From assembly GCA_965233585.1 (NCBI GenBank), contig CBDDTI010000096.1, forward strand, positions 1-14,154: DNA of 14,154 nucleotides, written 5' to 3'. Of the stretch, positions 1-13,868 are shown one piece after another (position 1 is the stretch's first letter; each line of letters opens with the position of its first letter). The notes below the pieces were generated by a model. That model was not told the origin of the DNA and made no database searches. It was given only the letters and a program-made list of their open reading frames with translations. Made by a program: the position numbers and the translations under genes. The DNA is from a bacterium (GTDB taxonomy: Bacteria; SAR324; NAC60-12).

Positions 1-503
1 TAGACTGGGATGGAGACACCACTTGGTGCTTTGTATTCATATTTGCTATCCTTTGTACATCCATATGTCAGGACTTGAAATTTGTCCCCTTTAAACATCA
101 TGTTCTTTTCGGTTGCCCACTTGTAAATCTTGACTAAATCCTCCTGTAAATTGAGTTCATCAGTTTTACCCCTGATCCTGTGAAGCACCTTTGTGTCATC
201 TACACAACTGGACACCTTAGAATGTGTAACATTCTCATTGATTATTTTCATCATGCAGATGAACAGGGTACCAGCAAGTACTGTTCCTTGTGGTACTTAC
301 AGGAATTGGGTCACTTTCTGCCCCATTGACCTTGACCACTTGGCTTCTTCCAGTTAGGAAGCTATAAATCCATTTACCAAGTGGCCCTCGGACTCCCAAC
401 CTTTGTAAAGTTCTTAATAGAATCCAGTGATCCACTTTGTCAAAAGGTTTTGCAAAATCAAGATAGATGACATCCACTGCATCACCTTCTTCTAGCCTTT
501 CTT
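1..503 (-). pseudogene. Decayed non-LTR retrotransposon (CR1/jockey-like) reverse transcriptase fragment, truncated at its 5' side and running off the left edge
   Basis: Minus-strand translation gives VDVIYLDFAKPFDKVDH...W..SFLTGRSQVVKVNG. After a frameshift near 297, where the usual SG of 'SGVPQG' is missing, it continues VPQGTVLAGTLF...SSCVDDTKV...LQEDLVKIYKWA..N.M.F..DKFQVL. The YADD-box equivalent reads CVDD. Confidence 0.92.
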
Positions 504-528
504 TCGAGCTTGATGTAGGCACATTTCT

Positions 529-570
529 TCTCAAAACACTCTCAAAACACCTTAAAACAGTCTAAAACGG
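529..570 (+). repeat. Short 10-11 bp tandem repeat with phased AAAAC tracts
   Basis: TCTCAAAACAC occurs twice (529-550), followed by CTTAAAACAG and TCTAAAACGG. AAAAC starts at 533, 544, 554 and 564. Confidence 0.6.
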
Positions 571-640
571 GCTTTTAACCATCCGTTTACGCATGAAAAC
601 CATCTTAAAGCGCTCTCAAACCACCTTGATGGCATCTACA

Positions 641-968
641 TTGAGCCTGTTGCAGGCTCAATCGAGCCTGTTTTCGTCTGTAATCGGCCTGCAACCGGCT
701 TGTTTTCGTCTGCAATCGGCTTGCAACAGGCTCGATCGAGCCTGTTGCAATCGAGCTTGTTGCAAGCCGATTACAGGCTCGATCGAGCCTGTTGCAAGCC
801 GATTACAGGCTCGATCGAGCCTGTTGCAAGCCGATTACAGGCTCAATCGAGCCTGTTGCAAGCCGATTACAGGCTCAATCGAGCCTGTTGCAAGCCGATT
901 ACAGGCTCAATCGAGCCTGTTGCAAGCCGATTGCAGACGAAAACAAGCCGGTTACAGGCTTGTTGCAA
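641..968. repeat. Palindromic 32-bp tandem array bracketed by 59-bp inverted repeats
   Basis: GCAAGCC recurs at 762, 794, 826, 858, 890 and 922 (period 32). The unit GCAAGCCGATTACAGGCTC(G/A)ATCGAGCCTGTT contains a 20-bp palindrome. 721-750 is a perfect 30-bp palindrome. 687-745 and 901-959 are reverse complements at 57/59 positions. Confidence 0.95.
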
Positions 969-1209
969 CATCTATTTTTCTCCATTGTCAAATTGTTCTC
1001 AATTTAAAAGCGCAAAGAAAGGTTTTGAGAATAAAAAATGTTTAAAAATTCCGTTCTTTTGCTCCAAACTCGCTCAAATGTAAAACTTTTTAACAATAAA
1101 AATGTTTAAATTCAAACTATGAAGGAGAGCGCTTAATTTAAATGTTTTACAGTTAAACCATTTCAGTATATCATTGAACCTTGTTCAGATAACACTCGCT
1201 GCAAAAATC

Positions 1210-1783: not shown

Positions 1784-2074
1784 CGTACCATGTCTTATTT
1801 TTCCAGCGCGTGTCTTTCGTTCCTTTACATTCAATTCATGCAATGCTGTCAATGCAAACAATTCATTGATTTTGCGCGCAATGTGCATTTAAATGTACAA
1901 TATTATATGCATAGTATAAACAGTCAAAATCGTTCCTTATTTATAATAAATATGTAGAAGAGCGCGTTTTGACCAAAATTTTTATTATATAAATAAAAAT
2001 CACAAATTCCATAATTTGAAATCCTCATTCTAAATTAAAATTTTGTTTAATTGACATCAACACCCAAACCCGTC

Positions 2075-3491
2075 ATGAAATTTTTTATTTTATTTTTTTG
2101 TGTCATTTTTTTGACACAAAATTCCTTTGCCCAAAACCTTTCTTTTTTTGAAAATATTTTAAAAATGTCTTCTGGATTTTACCCCCTCTTTAATTCCACT
2201 ATCAACTCAACTGTAACCAACCAATTGACGACCATCACCTCCACAACTACTGTGTCTACCACCACTACAATTACTACGACTTCTGCTGCCTCGTTTACAA
2301 CCACTACAATTACCACTTCAAGCTCCATTACTATTACAACTACCTCTACTTCATTGTCTAGCAGCACCACATCCGCAACTACTGTTTCTTCTACCTTACC
2401 AATCATCTTCTCTTCGACTTCATCAATTACCTCTACCACCAACAGCGTCACTACCACTGTACCAACGTCCATGCCTACAACTTCAACAACTTCGACTGTA
2501 TCAACAACTAGTTCCACAACCGCAACAATCACCTCTAACACCCCATTAACCACTGTCTCTTCACCTACATTAATTACCTCAACTACCACCCCTACTACCT
2601 CAACCATTAGCCCCACATTCACAACAAACCCATCCGCAACAATCACCTCCACCATCACCACTTCAAAGCCTTTAATCACTATTCCAAAGATGACATTTGG
2701 TGAATTTTTGCTTGAACAATTTACCTTTGACAGTAAGTCTCATTTGTTTCATTTTTACATTTATTTTCTCTAATATTCATATTACTATTTTGCAGACGGA
2801 TTTAAATTATTAGTAATTGTTATTCTTATGATCGTATGTCTTTTGGTGACGGTCCTAACAATTAAATTTTGGAGATTGAATAACCAATTAACTCAACACA
2901 ATCAACCCAATTCTGAAGTAAGTATTTTATTTTAAAATTTCTGTTTTACAAAAATTATAATTTTCCTATTTTATTTTCAGTTTTATGAAATGTCAACACT
3001 TCGTCGTGAGAAAGCCGATCAAGATTCAACTTCTGAAACAAATGTTGAAGTTTTGGACGCTCCTTCTTCTCCAGCTATTGACAATTCAGGACCAAAAACA
3101 TGCAACAAAATAATGAATACTGATGAATCATATTTGACGGATTTGGCGGTAAAAATATTTTTTATTCTCAAAATCATTCATTATAATCATACATTTACTT
3201 TATTATTTTTAGAAATCTCATTTTCAACCAGTGATTCGCCCAATTCCGTTGTATCCACGTACTACGCTCGAGAGACGACGGGCTCAATATTTCAATGAGT
3301 CTTTCAACCCTCTTTTTCCCGTCACCACCGCTCAAGATGACCCAACTCCGTTATATTCACGTTCTATATTTGACAGACGACGAACTCAAATTTTCAATGA
3401 TTCTTCCAACCCTCTTTTTTCCGTCACCACCGCTCAAGAGGAGTCTTCAAAATCTGCTTCTTCTGTTTTGCATCCGCCTACTTCGCTTTAA
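2075..3491 (+). CDS. Type I membrane mucin-like glycoprotein, 408 aa; join(2075..2732,2796..2917,2981..3148,3213..3491)
   Basis: Signal peptide MKFFILFFCVIFLTQNSFA followed by a long Thr/Ser-rich ectodomain. Three GT-AG introns (63, 63, 64 bp) join in phase. Exon 2, absent from the ORF track, supplies the TM helix LLVIVILMIVCLLVTVLTI followed by KFWR. Spliced length is 1227 nt, divisible by 3. Confidence 0.85.
3240..3443 (+). repeat. 102-bp (34-aa) tandem duplication in the mucin cytoplasmic tail
   Basis: PIPLYPRTTLERRRAQYFNESFNPLFPVTTAQDD versus PTPLYSRSIFDRRRTQIFNDSSNPLFSVTTAQEE. Confidence 0.9.
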
Positions 3492-5013: not shown

Positions 5014-5326
5014 AAGCTTGTGATCAAAAAATTTAAAAACTTAAAATGACACGAACATAAATTTTCCGTTGATTGAAGTATTTAACGGAGATTAGATGAT
5101 GTACATTGCATTGTCAACCAAGCACGTGTTCAAGGAATTTTAAAAACTCAAAATGACATGAACATAAATTTTCCGTTGATTGAAGTATTTAACAAAGATT
5201 AGATGATGTACATTGCATTGTCAACCAAGCACGTGTCCAAGGAATTTAAAAAACTTGAAATATCATGATCATAAAATTTTCATTGATTTAAGTATTAAAC
5301 TGAGATTAAATGATGCACGTTGCATC
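5014..5326. repeat. 107-bp direct repeat (two near-identical copies plus one degenerate) in a divergent intergenic region
   Basis: AACATAAATTTTCCGTTGATTGAAGTATTTAAC at 5054 and 5161, degenerate copy at 5268. CACGTG E-boxes at 5123-5128 and 5230-5235. Confidence 0.92.
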
Positions 5327-5559: not shown

Positions 5560-6342
5560 ATGCCTGGTCTTAACAATTCTGAATCTCGTCAAGTAATTCA
5601 TGACTCGCAAGGGTTAAGGGTTACAGTACGTATTGCTGATGATTCAACATCAAACTCTAACAACAACAACAACAACACCGCCGATGATTCAACATCGGAC
5701 CCTACAATCAATAATAATAACTCCGATGATTTGACATCGACCATCAACTCTGATGATTTAACATCAGTCTCTCCAACTGTTGTACCGATTGGACGAGGTG
5801 AGAGGTTAGCGAGACCAAATAACGTCTCAAACCCCCTTTTTGCTGGACGCGGAGTTGGACGAGGTGGGTCTGTCCGCAACACCTCAAATATTTCGAATGT
5901 CGGGCGTGGTGTTGGTCGAGGTCAACCAATTCAAAGAAATCCTCAACCATCTACTTCTGCTCCAACGGCTGGGCGGGAGGTTGGAGGCGGTGCTGGCAGG
6001 GGTGGAAGATATTTTCACCCTTACCGTCGTCCAGCAACTCAAACTTCGGCCTCTACCATAAACGGTTCTCGTTCAAGTTCCGTTATTTTTATAAACAGCG
6101 ATGGGGAAGAATTTGAGGAGGAGGAGGATTTTGATGAGACGGATTATGACTACCATTATTCTACTTGTGTCGAACATTTATTCAACAGAAGAAGAGTAAT
6201 TTTCGATATTAATGAAAGATATGCTGAGTCTTTGATTCAACGTCAAATACGATCACTTGAGCGACAAAATCTTTGGCTTCGAAATGAATGCCAAAGATTA
6301 AACACTCAATTGCAACGATGTAGGGAGTTGTTGTCTTCTTAA
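5560..6342 (+). CDS. Low-complexity protein with GRG repeats, PY-NLS-like motif, acidic patch and C-terminal leucine zipper, 260 aa
   Basis: AAAA-ATG start. GRGVGRG twice plus AGRGGR, RGGRYFHPY, EEFEEEEDFDE, and the heptad L-ERQNLW-L-RNECQR-L-NTQLQR-C. AATAAA at 6399-6404. Confidence 0.75.
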   Translation: MPGLNNSESRQVIHDSQGLRVTVRIADDSTSNSNNNNNNTADDSTSDPTINNNNSDDLTSTINSDDLTSVSPTVVPIGRGERLARPNNVSNPLFAGRGVGRGGSVRNTSNISNVGRGVGRGQPIQRNPQPSTSAPTAGREVGGGAGRGGRYFHPYRRPATQTSASTINGSRSSSVIFINSDGEEFEEEEDFDETDYDYHYSTCVEHLFNRRRVIFDINERYAESLIQRQIRSLERQNLWLRNECQRLNTQLQRCRELLSS

Positions 6343-7148: not shown

Positions 7149-7200
7149 TTTAATAAACTTATTTTGTTTTATTCAAAAAAATTTCAAATAAACTTTGGAA

Positions 7201-10200
7201 ATGGATTTTATAGAAATTCCACGTGATTTAAAGAGATCTAATTGCTTGGAATGGAAAACTCGTTACGATAAATTCAATTTTCTTTATCTGTACATTAGAC
7301 ATCTTTTTCCTGAGGAAACGGTTTCCGTTGTTGATTTTCGTCAAATGCCGATAAAGTATCTTAAAAAGTTTAATATAAGAGGTTTCAAATTCCCTCTTCA
7401 ATTTTGTAATTTAAAAAAATTCTTAAATAGAAACTCCCATTTACCAATTTCAATTTCAGTTTTTTATGAGAGTGAAGGTCAAGTTTCAAAGTTAGGTTTT
7501 TTTACTAACAAAAACAACAACAGAAACAAAAACATTTTAAATTTGTTAATGATAAAATATGATCCTGAAATCTCTCTTGAAAATGAATCTCCATTTTCTC
7601 GCCTTGCAAAACCAATTCAACGCAAGAAAAAATCTTCTTGTAAAAAGATTGTCAATTGTAGTTCTAATGTCAAATTGGGTTTTTCTTCCAAGTTTAAAAA
7701 GATCAAGGATTTAAATCAACAGCACCATTTCTTTAAAATTACCAAAATCCAAGGTTTTTTGAATAATCGGGCCGGACTGTTGTCGGGTAAAAAAGCAGCT
7801 CAACAGAAGCACATCTATTGTGAAAAATGTCTGCTTCATTTTCGATCCAAATCTAAAAAAGAAAAACACGAAAACACTTGCTGTGATAAACAACGTGCTA
7901 TCTACCCAAGTAAAAATTCCTCCATAAGTTTTACCAATCATAAACATAAATTTCATGCTCCTGTTGTTGGATTTTGTGATTTTGAATGTGTACTTCAAAG
8001 AAACAAAGAACGATCTAAATGTCAACTCTGTTTAAAAACTGAGTGTTTGTGTGCTTTTCCCACCAGTGACGATATAAACGTGCATAGACCAGTGGGGTAT
8101 AGCTTGCTTTTTGTGGATTCGAATGATGAGGTATTTTTTCAAGAAGAATATGTAGGAGAGGATGCAGCCAAACATTTTTTGGATCGAATGCATTTCTATG
8201 AAAAAGTTGTTGACGAAAGAAAACAAAAATTCAGACATATTGTTAAAAATCAATCTAGTCCGCAAGAATGGCAAATGTATCAAAAAGCAAAAGTTTGTCA
8301 TATTTGTGGTGGTCAATTCAAAAAGTACTCTAGAAATTACAGAAAAGTTCTAGATCATGATCACGTGACAGGGAAAATAATGGGCGCAGCTCATTCACTG
8401 TGTAACTTGACGAGATCCGGCCCCTTTCACACACCAATTTTTTTCCACAACGCTCAAGGGTAAGAAGTCTTAATTGGGTTTATTTATTAAACTAACACAA
8501 ATTATGTACGCGTTTCAGATACGATTTGCATTTAATCGTGGAAGAGTTAAATGTTTCCAAATTTAAGCAAAATGTAAAAGTCTTAGCAAAAAACAGTGAA
8601 AAGTTTCGCACTCTTACATTGGGCAAATTTAAAATTCAAGATTCGTTAGAGCACATTTCTGGCAGTCTAGATGCACTTGTTCAAGATTTGAATCAGACCT
8701 CAAATTTTACCTTTCCCATTTTACAACAAATGGAAAGATATAAAAAAATTCCTGTTCGTCAAAAATCAAAAGCTTTAAAACTTTTAAAAAGAAAAGGCGT
8801 TTTTTGTTACGAACATTTCCAATCTTTAGAAGAGATGAAGAAAAGTCGAAACCTTCCGTCCAAAGACTCTTTTTATTCTGAATTAAACGAAGAACACATT
8901 ACGGAAGCGGATTATTCCCATGCTCAAGAAGTCTTTAAATTGTTCAAATGCAAGAATGTGGTGGATTACATGATGCTCTATTGTTCTTTAGACGTTGTTT
9001 TGCTGTGTGAAGCATTTCTTCAGTACAGGAAAATGGTTATGGAACATTTTCAATTGGATCCTGTTTATTATCTAGGTAAACTTTAATCTTTACTGTTGGA
9101 TGTATCGTAATACTAAATTTGTTCTACCTAAATTAGGAATTCCTGGCTTGAGTTTTGATGTCATGCTTATGTTCTTTCAAAATTCAGAACAAGCTAAATC
9201 AGATAATAAGCTCACATCCGAATCTGAAACCTCCAAACCCCTCGGATCATTAGATGTCTATTCCGATCCTGAAATGGAGCGTTTTTTTACAAAGGGTATC
9301 AGAGGTGGGCAAAGTTTTATCGCTCAGCGTTATGCCAAAGGGAATAGCAATCCTAGAAAAAGCGGCGATCACTTGTTATACATTGATGGTAATTTTATAC
9401 TGTATTATCTGATGAAATCATTTTTGTTATGATCCATACAATTTTTCAGCCAACAACTTATACGGGAGTATGGAAACTTTAAAATTACCAGTTTCTGATT
9501 TCCAATGGGTTTCAAAAACAGAATTTAAAAATTGGACTGCCGAAGATATTATCAACATTCCTTCGCAAGACGATACTGGATATGCGTTCGAAGTTGATTT
9601 GCATTATCCTTCTCATCTTCACCAGGTAAATCCGATCTTTGTTGTGATACGTTATTTATTGTTTTGACAAGTTACATGATATCATTTTCAGGCACACGAT
9701 CAATTTCCGCTGGCTCCGTATACAGACACGGTTTCTTTTAAACATCTATCTCCTTACAATCGCCGTTTACTGAAACATCACTGTCCTCGAGATTATAGGA
9801 ACAAAAGATACCGGAGCAAGAAATTGTTGAGCACTTTTTATGACCGAAAAAAGTACGTGGTGCATCTGGAAAACCTGCAGTACTACTTGAAAAAGGGCAT
9901 GAAGTTGCTGAAGATAAGAAGAGTCATGAAGTTTCGACAAAAAGCTTTTTTGAAGGAGTTCATCGAAAAGGTCACAAAGCTGCGATCAAATGCTCGCAAT
10001 GACTTTGAACTCCGGCTTTTTAAACTTTTTGCCAACTCTACTTTTGGAAAATTTATTGGTAAGTTTTGAGATAAGATAATTTAATGATGTTGAGATTGTA
10101 AAAGACGCAAAAGCGTAATTTGACGCAGTCCATTTTTCTGTAAAAAATGAATTTGTTAAATACTCAAACGAATTTGGGGTCATTTTTTGTATTTTTTCTT

Positions 10201-13109
10201 TAATTTTGAGGCACAAGTGCGTGGTGGTACCGGCGACAGTTGCGGCAGTACGTCCTGCCGGCACCAACCACACACTTAGCCTCATCAAAATCGTCATCTT
10301 CAGAAACATCGGCTTCGTTGGAGGGGCTGACGTCTGCGGGGATGACGTCAGCGGGGCTGACGTCGGTGGGGATGACGTTGGCGGGGATGACGTCGGTGGG
10401 GATGACGTCCGGACGACCGGCGACAAAGTCGGCGACGGAGGCGGCGGCCGTCCTGATCATCATGATCAAGCCTCTGGCAAGCCGTCTAAGACGGCCACCG
10501 CCCCACATCAGTGGTGGACGCGGCGGTGTCTCGCTCAATGGCGGGTCCGGCAGCAGCTTGAACTTCTCCTCCTCCTCCTCTTCCGTCCATTTCGCCCTCA
10601 ACACCTCGTATTTCCCCCTCCTCATCCTTCCTAACTTTACCTTGTCCATTTTCCTTTTCCTTCTCCTTCTCCTCTTCCTTCTCTAAATTTGTTTTGAATT
10701 TTCCCGCATGGTTTTGTCAATTTTAGAAAATGAATCTCCAAACCTTCACATATTAATTAGCAAATTATCTCATAAATATTCATAATATTAAATCAATATT
10801 AAATTAAAAATTCGCAAAATGAATTAATCAAGTACGCAAACTTTTGAAAAATCAATTTTTATAAAATGATGTGTTTATTTTGTAATCAAAAAGAAAAAGA
10901 AAAATGATCAAATTTAAATTTTAATTTTTTTTTGTAACTTTTCGAGCTGTAGACGGAGACCACACTGATGGAAATGCCGTTACTTGACGCACTTCTGGTG
11001 TTGGTGAAGGTTCCACGTGAGTATAGGGTTGTGGTTTAGATTTTTGTGTTGATTGTGAAGACAAATCAAATGACACGCGATGAGAGGTCTGCTTTCGTGA
11101 CTCTGACTCCGGCCTTTGTGGGACGGATTTGTACGGGGTTCGTGATGGCCAAGCAGGTGCTACGGGTCGCTCGGAAGATGCCCATGATTCTCCACCCAAA
11201 GCCGCAGAAGATGACCATGCTCCTCCAGTTTTAGTAGATGACCATGCCCCCTCAGTTTTAGCTGATGACCATGCTCCTCCGCCCACAGCCCCAGAAGATG
11301 TCCATGCTCCTCCGGTTTTAGTGGATGACCATGCTCCCCCGCCCCCAGCCCCGGTAGTAGATGCACTCTTCCACGACTCCGACCCTGATTTTTGTGGGAC
11401 GGATTTGTACGGGGTCCGTGATGGCCAAGCAGGTGCCACGGGACGTTCGGAAGATGCCCATGATCCCCCACCCAAGGCCGCAGAAGATGACCATGCTCCC
11501 GCAGTTTTAGTGGATGACCATGCCCCCTCATTTTTAGCAGATGACCATGCTCCTCCGCCCACAGCCCCAGAAGATGACCATGCTCCTCTGGTTTTAGTGG
11601 ATGACCATGCTCCCCCACTCCCGGCTCCGACAGTAGATGCACTCTTCCACGACTCCCGCTCTGATTTTTGTGGGACGGACTTGTACGGGGTCCGTGATGG
11701 CCAAGCAGGTGCCACGGGACGTTCGGAAGATGACCATGATTCCCCACCCAAGGCCGCAGAAGATGACCATGCTCCTCCGGTTTTAGTGGATGACCATGCT
11801 CCTCCGCCCCCGACCCCGGCAGTAGATGCGCTCTTCCACGACTCCGACCCTGATTTTTGTGGGACGGACTTGTATGGAGTCCGTGATGGCCAAGCAGGTG
11901 CCACGGGACGCTCGGAAGATGCCCATGATCCTCCACCCGCAGCCCCAGAAGATGACCATGCTCCCTCAGTTTTTGTAGATGACCATGCTCCCCCAGCCGC
12001 AGCCCCGGTAGAGCTACTGCCAGAAGTCGGACTTGAAGTTGCCTCCTCCTGGGCTAATTCTATTACTTTTAACCAAAAAGCTTTGCTCTTTTCCTGATCT
12101 TTTTTATCCATTTTGACTTAGTGTTTATTTTGTTGGAATTTTTGATGTCCGTTTATGTCGGGCTTTAAAAAAGGAATGATTTCAAATTGAAGTAAATTAT
12201 AGTACATTGCTAATTACAGAGGAAAATGAAATGTGATATGGGACGGCTAGTTAGCTGAGGTGATTGCGCACATAATCAATTTTCTTTATTAAATAAATCT
12301 TATTTTGCATTTCAGAAAATGTTCGAAATTACTCTGAAGTGGTCCTTTGTGGTGATGAACAGAGCTTAAGGAAAGCCAGTCTTGGTCAACACATCAACAG
12401 TTTTCAAATCATCAATGAAAACTTGGTGGCTGTCAACAAGAAGCCGGCAATAATAGAGCTCAGGAAGCCTTTAGCTGTTGGATTTTCTATTTTGGAATTG
12501 TCCTAGTTGTTTATGTACAGATCGTATTATGACACGATTCAACAACATTTTGGCGAAAAAAATGTGTCTTTATGTTTCTCAGACACGGATTCTTTTCTTT
12601 TAAAAGTAAGATGCAACAACTTGGAAAGGGAAATGAAAAAATTGGAGCACATATTTGATTTTTCAAAGTACCCCAAACAACATCCTCTTTTCGATGACAG
12701 TAGAGCCAATCAGCTTTTTTATTTCAAAGACGAACTAAAAGGCAGAGCTGCTATTACTCACTTTATAGGCTTACATCCAAAATGTTATTCTATGAAAATT
12801 ACTGATTTTTCAGACAAAAACAAAACAGAAGAAAAGAAAATTTGCAAAGGTTTAAAAAAATCTAGCATAAAAAAGCAATTAACCTATAACGATTACAAAA
12901 AATGTCTAAAACGTGCTGTTCTAATTTACAAATCTTTCAAAAACTTAAGATCAAAGAATCATAAAATTCGGACATGTTTTCAAAGAAAGATTGCGTTATC
13001 AGCAATGGATTCCAAAAGACACATTTTGAATTGCGGATATCACACTTTATCACTAGGAAATTGTCTTATTGTCAACAACAAATCATCTAAATGCCCTATT
13101 TGTAAATGA
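7201..13109 (+). CDS. polB: Protein-primed family B DNA polymerase, 1134 codons, six exons, one in-frame TAG (12504-12506) in this copy; join(7201..8459,8519..9075,9137..9388,9450..9625,9692..10058,12316..13109)
   Basis: Splicing restores split motifs exactly: ExoII FHNAQG|YDLH, LDPVYYL|GIPGLSFD, motif A YID|ANNLYG, LHQ|AHDQFPLAP and motif B KLFANSTFGKFI|ENVRNY. Also present are ExoI CDFEC, ExoIII YCSLDV, GIRGG, motif C SDTDS and an endonuclease VII/HNH-like insert CHIC...DHDHVTG...AHSLCN. Introns are 59, 61, 61, 66 and 2257 bp, all GT-AG. Total 3405 nt. Confidence 0.93.
10200..10649 (-). CDS. Nested antisense hypothetical protein, 149 aa (possibly longer at the N-terminus), with DV(I/S)P(T/A) repeats and a C-terminal CxxC..HH motif
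   Basis: AAA-ATG-G start at 10649 within a GC-rich island whose limits match the ORF. Contains six 5-aa repeats and CRNCRRYHH; the stop overlaps ATTAAA. Other frames are also open over this GC-rich stretch, so the frame choice is inferred. Confidence 0.6.
   Translation of the reverse strand: MDKVKLGRMRRGKYEVLRAKWTEEEEEEKFKLLPDPPLSETPPRPPLMWGGGRLRRLARGLIMMIRTAAASVADFVAGRPDVIPTDVIPANVIPTDVSPADVIPADVSPSNEADVSEDDDFDEAKCVVGAGRTYCRNCRRYHHALVPQN
10323..10410. repeat. 15-bp tandem repeat, six copies, each with GGGG and TGACGT
   Basis: GGGG(A/C)TGACGT starts at 10323, 10338, 10353, 10368, 10383 and 10398. Confidence 0.93.
10921..12111 (-). CDS. Nested antisense Ser/Gly/Trp-rich repeat protein, 396 aa
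   Basis: CAAA-ATG-G start, unique N- and C-termini around the repeats, TAA stop, and AATAAA on the minus strand at 10874-10879. Repeat periods are all multiples of 3. Confidence 0.75.
   Translation of the reverse strand: MDKKDQEKSKAFWLKVIELAQEEATSSPTSGSSSTGAAAGGAWSSTKTEGAWSSSGAAGGGSWASSERPVAPAWPSRTPYKSVPQKSGSESWKSASTAGVGGGGAWSSTKTGGAWSSSAALGGESWSSSERPVAPAWPSRTPYKSVPQKSERESWKSASTVGAGSGGAWSSTKTRGAWSSSGAVGGGAWSSAKNEGAWSSTKTAGAWSSSAALGGGSWASSERPVAPAWPSRTPYKSVPQKSGSESWKSASTTGAGGGGAWSSTKTGGAWTSSGAVGGGAWSSAKTEGAWSSTKTGGAWSSSAALGGESWASSERPVAPAWPSRTPYKSVPQRPESESRKQTSHRVSFDLSSQSTQKSKPQPYTHVEPSPTPEVRQVTAFPSVWSPSTARKVTKKN
11105..11993 (-). repeat. Hierarchical coding repeat: four large units (spacing 276, 276, 189 bp) containing 27-33 bp GAWSS subunits
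   Basis: GTGATGGCCAAGCAGGTGC starts at 11142, 11418, 11694 and 11883. ERPVAPAWPSRTPYKSVPQ occurs 4 times and GAW(S/T)S 14 times. Confidence 0.93.
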
Positions 13110-13172: not shown

Positions 13173-13868
13173 ATGGATGGTTTTGATTTAAGGTTCAGTA
13201 TTCCTTCCAACATGTTAATTGTTGGCCCAACATCGAGTGGAAAAACAACGTGGCTTAAACATTTAGTGGTTGGTAGGCATGAATATTTTGCAACTCCGCC
13301 AGAAACAATGTTGTTGTTCTACAAAGAACCACAAAAAGCTTATGAATACATGGAAGATAATATGAATCGAGACAAACGTTCAAACTCTCGTTTTCCAACA
13401 TTTCGTAAATTTAAAAGTATTCCAAATTCGATTGAAGAACTAAAAGATATTTTGGAATCATATCCAAGAAAAATGCCCAAATTAGTTGTTTTTGATGATT
13501 ATATAGACGATGTTGGACAAATATTAAAACATTTTTTTACGGTTTTGACTCATCACTACAATTGTTTCACCGTTTTTCTGTGTCAAAATTTATTTGATAA
13601 AAAAGGTGATTTGCGGACATTAAGCATAAACACTAAATATATGGTTCTTTTTAACAATCCTCGGGACAGAAGTGCGGTTGCGCATTTGGCTAAACAAATT
13701 TTCCCCGGACGAGTCGGAATTTTAAATAAAGCATACAGGGAAGCTGTTAACGGTCGAAGTCACGGATATCTCCTTCTAGATTTCCATCAACAACAAGACG
13801 ATAAAGTCAGAATTCGAAGCAACATTTTTCCGTACGAGGGACTGATGAAAGCTTACGTTACCGTTTAA
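13173..13868 (+). CDS. Genome-packaging ATPase (A32/FtsK-HerA superfamily, Polinton type), 231 aa
   Basis: Walker A GPTSSGKT and Walker B LVVFDD, then THHYN...CQNLF, RTLSINTKYMVLFNNPRD, LAKQIFP, GYLLLD and RIRSNIFP, as in Polinton ATPases. Intact and intronless. Confidence 0.93.
   Translation: MDGFDLRFSIPSNMLIVGPTSSGKTTWLKHLVVGRHEYFATPPETMLLFYKEPQKAYEYMEDNMNRDKRSNSRFPTFRKFKSIPNSIEELKDILESYPRKMPKLVVFDDYIDDVGQILKHFFTVLTHHYNCFTVFLCQNLFDKKGDLRTLSINTKYMVLFNNPRDRSAVAHLAKQIFPGRVGILNKAYREAVNGRSHGYLLLDFHQQQDDKVRIRSNIFPYEGLMKAYVTV

Follow-up and report, generated by a model that had tools for sequence, protein, structure and literature searches.

The stretch of DNA analyzed here (the window) is the whole of contig CBDDTI010000096.1 (C96), 14,154 nt, from assembly GCA_965233585.1, a bacterial metagenome-assembled genome (MAG) of 747 contigs and 12.0 Mb. 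Judged by its sequence, the contig is eukaryotic Maverick/Polinton DNA mis-binned into that MAG: it is not bacterial, because it has GT..AG introns of 54-66 nt, AAAATG start contexts and a gene for a protein-primed family-B polymerase (polB, encoding pPolB). One intron of polB is greatly enlarged and contains two open reading frames (ORFs) on the opposite strand, of 149 amino acids (ORF149, nested gene 1) and 396 amino acids (ORF396, nested gene 2). Their positions, with those of the neighboring features, are collected in Table 1.

Table 1. Coordinates of the polB gene, its enlarged intron and other features of the window
Feature	Position	Strand	Remarks
Left terminal inverted repeat	500-1083	.	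Inverted copy at far end of siblings C523, C288, C579
pPolB exons 1-5	7201-8459, 8519-9075, 9137-9388, 9450-9625, 9692-10058	+	PF03175; splice sites read
Enlarged spliceosomal-type intron, phase 1, inside motif B	10059-12315	+	GTAAGT..TTTCAG
ATTAAA poly(A)-type signal, downstream of nested gene 1	10080-10085	-	Identical in 11/11 aligned full-length family-A copies
Nested gene 1 (ORF149), 149 aa, ATG	10200-10649	-	Frame-specific constraint; homologs
Conserved non-coding block immediately upstream of nested gene 1	10647-10743	-	80-82% identity A/A'/B
AATAAA poly(A) signal, 42 nt past nested gene 2 stop	10874-10879	-	Identical in 11/11 aligned full-length family-A copies
Nested gene 2 (ORF396), 396 aa, ATG	10921-12111	-	Frame-specific constraint; Trp conservation
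Upstream region of nested gene 2	12112-12257	-	TATAAT-like element visible
pPolB exon 6	12316-13109	+	In-frame stop 12504-12506 in window copy
Packaging-ATPase-like gene	13173-13868	+	P-loop; Pox_A32 E 7.3e-4, 19.5 bits, below 22.8-bit cut-off

The six-exon polB model comes to 1134 codons. Exon 5 matched PF03175 above cut-off (E = 5.4e-6), and polymerase motif A (DANNLYG) and motif B are legible across the splice junctions. Four of the introns measure 59, 61, 61 and 66 nt; the fifth, of 2257 bp, splits motif B, KLFANSTFGKFI|ENVRN, at 10058/12316, and ENVRN resumes in phase beyond it. An earlier note on this DNA, made from its letters, had read this break with canonical splice sites, as we do; it also counted ten other introns of 54-66 bp, of which the size range stands and the number falls to nine (a rule-based scan plus one found by eye). 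The borders of the enlarged intron are GT..AG in 25/25 copies of the gene, the donor being GTAAGT in 24 and GTGAGT in one, and the acceptor CAG in 24 and TAG in one. These borders, and the restoration of a conserved reading frame when the segment is removed, are those of a spliceosomal-type intron. The nested ORFs have a GC content of 0.51-0.62, compared with ~0.32-0.39 for the polB exons; in the spacer that separates the ORFs it drops to 0.23.

The exon model was carried by alignment onto the 23 copies with both flanks complete; C79 and C476, which are cut by contig ends, were omitted from the count. With introns removed, polB was intact in 20 of the 23 (9/10 in family A and 11/11 in family B, as the families are defined below), with length differences only in-frame. 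The non-intact copies were the window's own (one stop), C224 (a 1-nt gap) and the decayed C288:44528. For polB, dN/dS was 0.069 in each of families A and B taken alone and 0.105 in comparisons of A with B, for which dS was 0.76. The stop in exon 6 is private to the window, none of the 24 other copies having a stop at that codon; probably the window's element is a dead copy, or else the stop is a sequencing error. Because the lineage reached at least 24 copies with the polB ORF kept intact, the intron must be removed from the mRNA, and by this main, if indirect, argument we infer that it is spliced out to make polB. Both borders were bridged by contigs of two studies (the donor at 9708-10092 and 10025-10409, the acceptor at 12061-12398 and 11999-12374), one of which may be the window's own source; the junctions are therefore not an assembly chimera. 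No 10058/12316 joint was present in contigs from four runs, which says nothing on expression.

Two further observations concern polB itself. An Endonuclease VII/HNH-type domain (PF02945, E = 8.9e-6, above cut-off) is inserted in exon 1 at ~8254-8421, spanning residues 354-409 of the ORF that begins at 7195, and recalls the HNH insertion of the pPolB2 of nematode and oomycete Polintons, as the accessible portion of PMC10748475 describes it. A search with the exon 6 locus found one distant match in metagenome contigs (40% identity, on a 2.2-kb contig) and none in viral contigs; a wider protein search returned 38 polB relatives.

When exon-5 and exon-6 tblastn matches in the bin were paired, 48 copies were obtained (C258, the second C705 copy and C288:44528, which lack one flank, were dropped), and these form a graded series of intron states. 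Family D (10 copies, exon 5 ~40-50% identical to that of the window) has no intron, motif B being uninterrupted. Family C (14 copies, 68-72%) has an empty intron of 55-74 nt, which lies at the identical codon position and phase in the four copies read directly. The intron of family B (11 copies, ~91%) measures 1077-1351 nt and holds one antisense gene. Family A (12 copies, ≥99%) has an intron of 2254-2322 nt in 11 copies and, through a deletion, of 1583 nt in one; the single A' copy, C224 (97%), has one of 2018 nt. The two-gene class, A plus A', thus numbers 13 copies of 1583-2322 nt. On a quick maximum-likelihood polB tree of 325 columns, each state fell on one side of a branch (SH-aLRT 100, 98, 95 and 84). 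The earlier note had proposed comparing related elements for an empty or differently loaded intron, and the comparison supplied both.

The note had also proposed looking for the segment apart from polB. Blastn with the intron DNA gave 42 matches in the bin, and after their coordinates had been cross-checked against those of the polB exons and introns, every one proved to fall in a polB intron at this site. An inserted DNA transposon was considered and rejected: three inverted-repeat pairs were found in 9950-12450, none of them at the intron ends, Pfam gave no transposase domain in the segment, and 0/42 matches in the 12-Mb bin lay outside polB introns. A self-splicing group I or II intron with a homing endonuclease was likewise rejected; the whole window had no Rfam match, and hence no ribozyme match, at gathering score, and the borders are of the spliceosomal type.

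Two antisense ORFs inside the intron

The earlier note had pointed to two GC-rich minus-strand ORFs in the 2257 bp, an AT-rich spacer, good start contexts, poly(A)-type signals, and the lack of a transposase or a terminal inverted repeat (TIR), and all of these hold; both ORFs begin in the context AAAATG. Values of dN/dS were calculated by the Nei-Gojobori method from 11 full-length family-A introns, the annotated frame being compared with the four frames that do not mirror it. ORF396 gave 0.335 in the annotated frame versus 1.03-1.39 in the others, and ORF149 gave 0.47 versus 0.82-1.21; the frame-specific constraint was present also in the unique, non-repeat N- and C-terminal parts of the ORFs. 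ORF149 was intact in 10/12 family-A copies and ORF396 in 9/12. Indels were multiples of three in 11 of 14 cases in ORF149 and in 3 of 6 in ORF396, versus 3 of 17 in the spacers. Both ORFs therefore seem to behave as protein-coding genes, which we judge likely as part of the overall explanation given below. Neither product matched a Pfam family at or above cut-off or had a usable ESM Atlas neighbor.

The N-terminus of the ORF149 product is basic/acidic, one helix is predicted and the C-terminus bears a conserved Cys/His motif; the gene includes a hypervariable repeat of 5 residues (15 nt) at 10323-10409. An AlphaFold2 model from an 11-row alignment had a mean pLDDT of 52, with a helix at residues 52-76 and a short C-terminal hairpin. 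GC at third codon positions (GC3) is 0.72, versus 0.32 in polB. The block directly upstream is 80-82% identical among A, A' and B even though dS between A and B polB is as high as 0.76 and the adjacent coding sequence is unalignable; it may comprise the promoter and 5' untranslated region of nested gene 1.

Homologs of ORF149 occur in the introns of families B and A'. The family-B intron carries a single minus-strand ORF of 306-380 amino acids, intact in 6/11 copies, with dN/dS of 0.345 overall and 0.167 over the last 100 codons. Its layout is that of ORF149: a basic/acidic N-terminus, a GLIRRIRSAVADIF-type helix-like segment, a hypervariable repeat and a C-terminal Cys..Cys..YHH.LV. Tblastn between the A and B small genes found nothing at E 1e-3, and hhalign aligned the final 22 residues (P = 5.8e-4). 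In shuffle tests, the C-terminal 45 residues of A and B beat 2000/2000 shuffles in 4/4 comparisons; the N-terminal score was matched by 1, 5 and 7 of 2000 shuffles in three comparisons and by 124/2000 in the fourth.

ORF396 consists largely of nested tandem repeats with periods of 27, 87, 189 and 276 nt, and its region is open in three frames. The predicted protein is 22% Ser, 13% Ala and 13% Gly, with 27 Trp residues (6.8%) spaced 9-18 residues apart within the repeats; of 162 flanking residues, 61 are Ser, 32 Ala and 29 Gly. Across ORF396 copies Trp was kept in 267/268 cells, versus 94.9% for other residues. ORF396 is thus a Trp-repeat protein and, to judge from its composition, a disordered one. 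GC at codon positions 1, 2 and 3 is 0.50, 0.74 and 0.39, and polB GC3 is 0.32; because the richness lies at position 2 and GC3 is near that of polB, the GC-richness of ORF396 is an effect of protein composition. The region 12112-12257 is a candidate promoter for the gene, and the stretch 12087-12257 that spans it is 72% identical in the divergent C224 copy.

Outside the bin, 17 proteins homologous to ORF149 and 7 homologous to ORF396 were found, most of them coming from metagenome assemblies in ENA; when 1.84 billion representatives were searched with a profile, the small-protein family again had only 17 members. Contigs of 16718, 19756 and 16009 nt occur in the homolog lists of both nested proteins, which suggests that the two genes adjoin in those assemblies too. 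A 185-residue protein from another assembly, P0036, has an ORF396-type N-terminus and Trp repeats fused to an ORF149-type helix and Cys/His tail; a deletion between the two genes, which are neighbors on one strand, would explain such a fusion.

At synonymous sites the nested genes have diverged by 0.09-0.15 in family A and by 0.32 in family B, 2-3 times as much as polB (0.048 and 0.091), although divergence in the intron spacers (0.032) is like that in the short introns (0.031). The excess might come from GC-rich third positions decaying faster in an element that is AT-rich.

Explanations for the loaded intron

The explanation that we regard as likely treats the intron as a housing, removed by splicing, for two accessory genes that come with expression signals of their own, evolve under moderate constraint and have been propagated along with the element. 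The motif B intron would have grown from ~60 nt to 2.26 kb by taking in two self-contained protein-coding genes on the opposite strand. The ORF149-family gene would be the older, already present in the intron of the common ancestor of two element lineages, and ORF396 would have joined later, in one lineage; in A compared with B its cassette occupies the interval from the conserved block to the polB acceptor, so that this is where the second gene was presumably added. Each gene would be transcribed from its own putative promoter to its own poly(A) signal, and polB would be produced by splicing out the whole cassette. Traveling with the element, the two genes would encode accessory, rapidly evolving and mostly disordered repeat proteins, most likely host-interaction factors. 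The cargo-bay reading of the earlier note is in this respect upheld in a qualified way by comparison, that is, by the intron states, the confinement of the intron-DNA matches to polB introns, the coding constraint and the intact polB genes.

Several points tell against this explanation. Homology between the A and B small genes escapes tblastn at the threshold used and depends on short terminal motifs. The dN/dS ratios are all-pairs values from related copies and hence non-independent, and many of the in-frame indels sit in 15-nt or triplet repeats, where multiples of three are expected. The small gene is broken in 2/12 family-A and 5/11 family-B copies, and ORF396 is broken or deleted in 3/12 family-A copies and in C224, while polB is intact in 20/23; some of these frameshifts could be short-read assembly errors in repeats. 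The quick tree leaves both an A+B clade versus C and the order of A, B and C unsettled. The copy search spanned the 12-Mb bin rather than the host genome, so that free-standing or cellular copies are possible, and splicing and minus-strand transcripts are deduced from sequence.

A regulatory role, in which the cassette serves mainly to give transcription antisense to polB, across its intron and exon 5, and so to throttle or time the polymerase by transcriptional interference or dsRNA, with the proteins secondary, is in our view unlikely, if the most serious of the alternatives. It draws on geometry: the polB donor is 141 nt away from the small-gene stop in family A and 39 nt away in family B, and poly(A) signals for the gene lie at 10080-10085 and, within exon 5, at 10052-10057, and therefore minus-strand transcripts should have their ends at exon 5 or inside it and overlap polB. 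The promoter-like block is, moreover, better conserved than the coding sequence, and among cellular genes, cases are documented in which a nested gene and its host gene interfere with each other, at least in the portions of that literature at hand. Coding-frame constraint, the 99.6% conservation of Trp and the conserved terminal protein motifs nonetheless show that the proteins are selected, and regulation of this kind is compatible with a housing for accessory genes rather than exclusive of it.

It is less probable again, and we think improbable outright, that the segment is a foreign passenger, a transposon or captured host gene carried neutrally in the intron with its ORFs decaying. Broken ORFs are indeed common (5/11 family-B small genes, 3/12 ORF396 copies), ORF149 looks foreign by its GC3, and nematode Mavericks acquire GC-rich cargo according to the available text of bioRxiv 10.1101/2022.07.12.499685. 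Yet the intron DNA has neither TIRs nor a transposase domain and none of its matches lies outside polB introns; the small gene has been retained across lineages as far apart as A and B; dN/dS falls below 1 in the annotated frame only; and conservation extends to the upstream block and the poly(A) signals. Least credible is an artefact, whether chance frames in GC-rich minisatellites, a chimeric assembly or a split, dead polB. What speaks for it is that the ORF396 region is made of tandem repeats and open in 3/6 frames, that the window's polB has an in-frame stop and that the source is a short-read metagenome bin. It has already been largely refuted by the 13 loaded A/A' and 11 family-B copies on different contigs, by the borders bridged in two studies, by frame-specific third-position substitutions, and by polB being intact in 20/23 copies at a dN/dS of 0.07, with a stop private to 1/25.

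With the intron taken as a housing for accessory genes, its value lies in the comparison that it allows. No intron, an empty intron, one gene and two genes coexist in one data set, a rare series of directly comparable states, and the series bears on how a virus-like element gains genes without enlarging its intergenic space.

The surrounding element

The bin scores as 92% complete and 2% contaminated as a bacterium. The polB exon 5 query had 55 tblastn matches across 44 of its contigs, and at least four Maverick/Polinton families are represented (e.g., C523, C212, C288, C224, C164, C315), C212 alone having three copies. Dozens of eukaryotic Maverick contigs can thus go unnoticed in a bacterial MAG scoring 2% contamination.

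As part of the same likely explanation, the window would be the left 13.6 kb of a ~24-kb Maverick/Polinton-type element from a eukaryote. Because 500-1083 recurs in inverted orientation ~24 kb away in three sibling copies, it is the left TIR; it includes 32-bp tandem repeats at 669-936. Homology to the sibling copies begins at ~500, and the window sequence diverges left of ~497. The termini of C288, C523 and C579 are palindromic and hairpin-like, and the window copy (~480-540) is without the outer arm of ~30 nt. The flanks of C579 have no matching 6-mer target-site duplication at the ends as placed, the exact termini being uncertain.

The right half of sibling C523 supplies genes outside the window: an rve integrase (L016:4254-5342, minus strand; PF00665, E = 2.6e-9) accompanied by a chromodomain (E = 3.5e-5), and a weak adenain-like protease match below cut-off (PF00770, E = 0.0064). 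Two large ORFs had no Pfam match, and no capsid gene was identified with Pfam, the one method applied to it. A protein-primed family-B polymerase, an rve integrase (in the sibling) and long TIRs, three of the features by which Polintons are recognized, are present. Adjoining the integrase in C523 are a TBP-like protein (PF00352, E = 1.7e-16; L016:6579-7196, minus strand) and a TFIIB-like protein with a zinc ribbon (PF08271, E = 3.1e-8; L016:5753-6502, minus strand); in a literature search no mention of these in Polintons surfaced. Such element-encoded basal transcription factors could bear on the expression of element genes, the nested ones included.

Three element genes have the sequence ATTTAAGAAAA upstream of their ATGs, ~35-50 nt before 13173 and 13917 (plus strand) and ~10-20 nt before 4808 (minus strand); this sequence may be a shared promoter element. 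It does not precede the nested genes or polB, and k-mer counting gave no motif common to the nested genes and other element genes. Elsewhere in the window are a Gly/Arg/Ser-rich ORF of 260 amino acids with GC up to 0.50 (5560-6342, plus strand), a strongly C-skewed ORF followed by two candidate 63-nt introns (2051-2773, plus strand), neither with a Pfam match, and tandem repeats of 102 and 107 nt (3239-3439, 5032-5325).

Comparison with known systems

Ago-hook proteins carry many Trp residues, as GW/WG dipeptides, in disordered Gly/Ser-rich sequence. Like them, ORF396 has Trp as its best-conserved feature, set in Gly/Ser/Ala-rich and apparently disordered repeats. Unlike them, ORF396 of the window has no GW and no WG, the contexts being AW, WS and SW, and Pfam at cut-off detected no Ago-hook domain in it; its relatives P0007 and P0036 carry WG runs. 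A viral mimic of the GW/WG Ago-hook is SPMMV P1, going by the accessible portion of PMC2904775. The likeness serves as a working analogy, and we do not class ORF396 as a member. Speculatively, and with little confidence, the analogy might be extended to make ORF396 an Argonaute/PIWI decoy, whose Trp array would fill the Trp-binding pockets of host silencing Argonautes and blunt small-RNA silencing; the older gene, whose product has hypervariable repeats and a Cys/His tail, would add a second factor to the arms race, and the antisense housing would couple expression inversely to replication. If this were true, the intron would ensure that both nested genes pass on together with the only gene that the element cannot do without. 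More generally, the nested proteins are fast-evolving orphans and candidate host-interaction or anti-silencing factors.

Among Mavericks, intact core genes are described as intronless in vertebrates (available parts of PMC8097293, citing Kapitonov and Jurka 2006) and in nematodes (available parts of bioRxiv 10.1101/2022.07.12.499685), and these accounts place cargo near one element end. The suspicion of the earlier note that the arrangement is not a standard Polinton feature agrees with these accounts, although the note did not mention the herpesvirus precedent discussed below. Like the nematode Mavericks of Widen et al. (bioRxiv 10.1101/2022.07.12.499685, as far as that text was accessible), the present element has lineage-specific extra genes of high GC and low conservation; unlike in those, the extra genes lie within a polB intron, and the core gene has introns while none was detected in the nested genes. 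No homology to WASP or KRMA was found in the nested proteins with Pfam. A complete gene in an intron, antisense to its host gene, also recalls the nested genes of Drosophila and C. elegans, so far as the excerpts consulted describe them; here, unlike in the cellular cases, host and nested genes belong to one mobile multi-copy element and have been amplified together.

The closest parallel is the herpesvirus terminase gene UL15, whose intron houses the opposite-strand genes UL16 and UL17 in HSV-1, in VZV and in DEV and a different load in RCMV and BoHV-4, according to the accessible sections of PMC3079670. In both systems, within the limits of that source, a spliceosomal intron with complete opposite-strand genes inside it divides an essential and conserved viral gene, and the exons are conserved while the gene content of the intron varies among lineages. 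As in UL15, the ORFs found here are complete, lie wholly within the intron and have their own starts and poly(A) signals. The host gene, on the other hand, is the protein-primed DNA polymerase of a Maverick/Polinton and not a terminase; the nested proteins are unrelated to UL16 and UL17, belong to no known family and are small and rich in repeats; for UL15, again by those sections, splicing has been proven, and for polB it is deduced; and the empty-intron and intronless states survive in relatives of the present element. The literature searched yielded no description of genes nested in a Polinton/Maverick intron, and a nested-gene intron in a Maverick/Polinton polymerase has apparently not yet been described, the architecture being known from herpesviruses. 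In this Maverick lineage the polymerase gene, presumably spliced, remains intact and under strong constraint in 20 copies, and one of its introns seems to have become, stepwise, a housing for one and then two accessory genes, an independent parallel to herpesvirus UL15.

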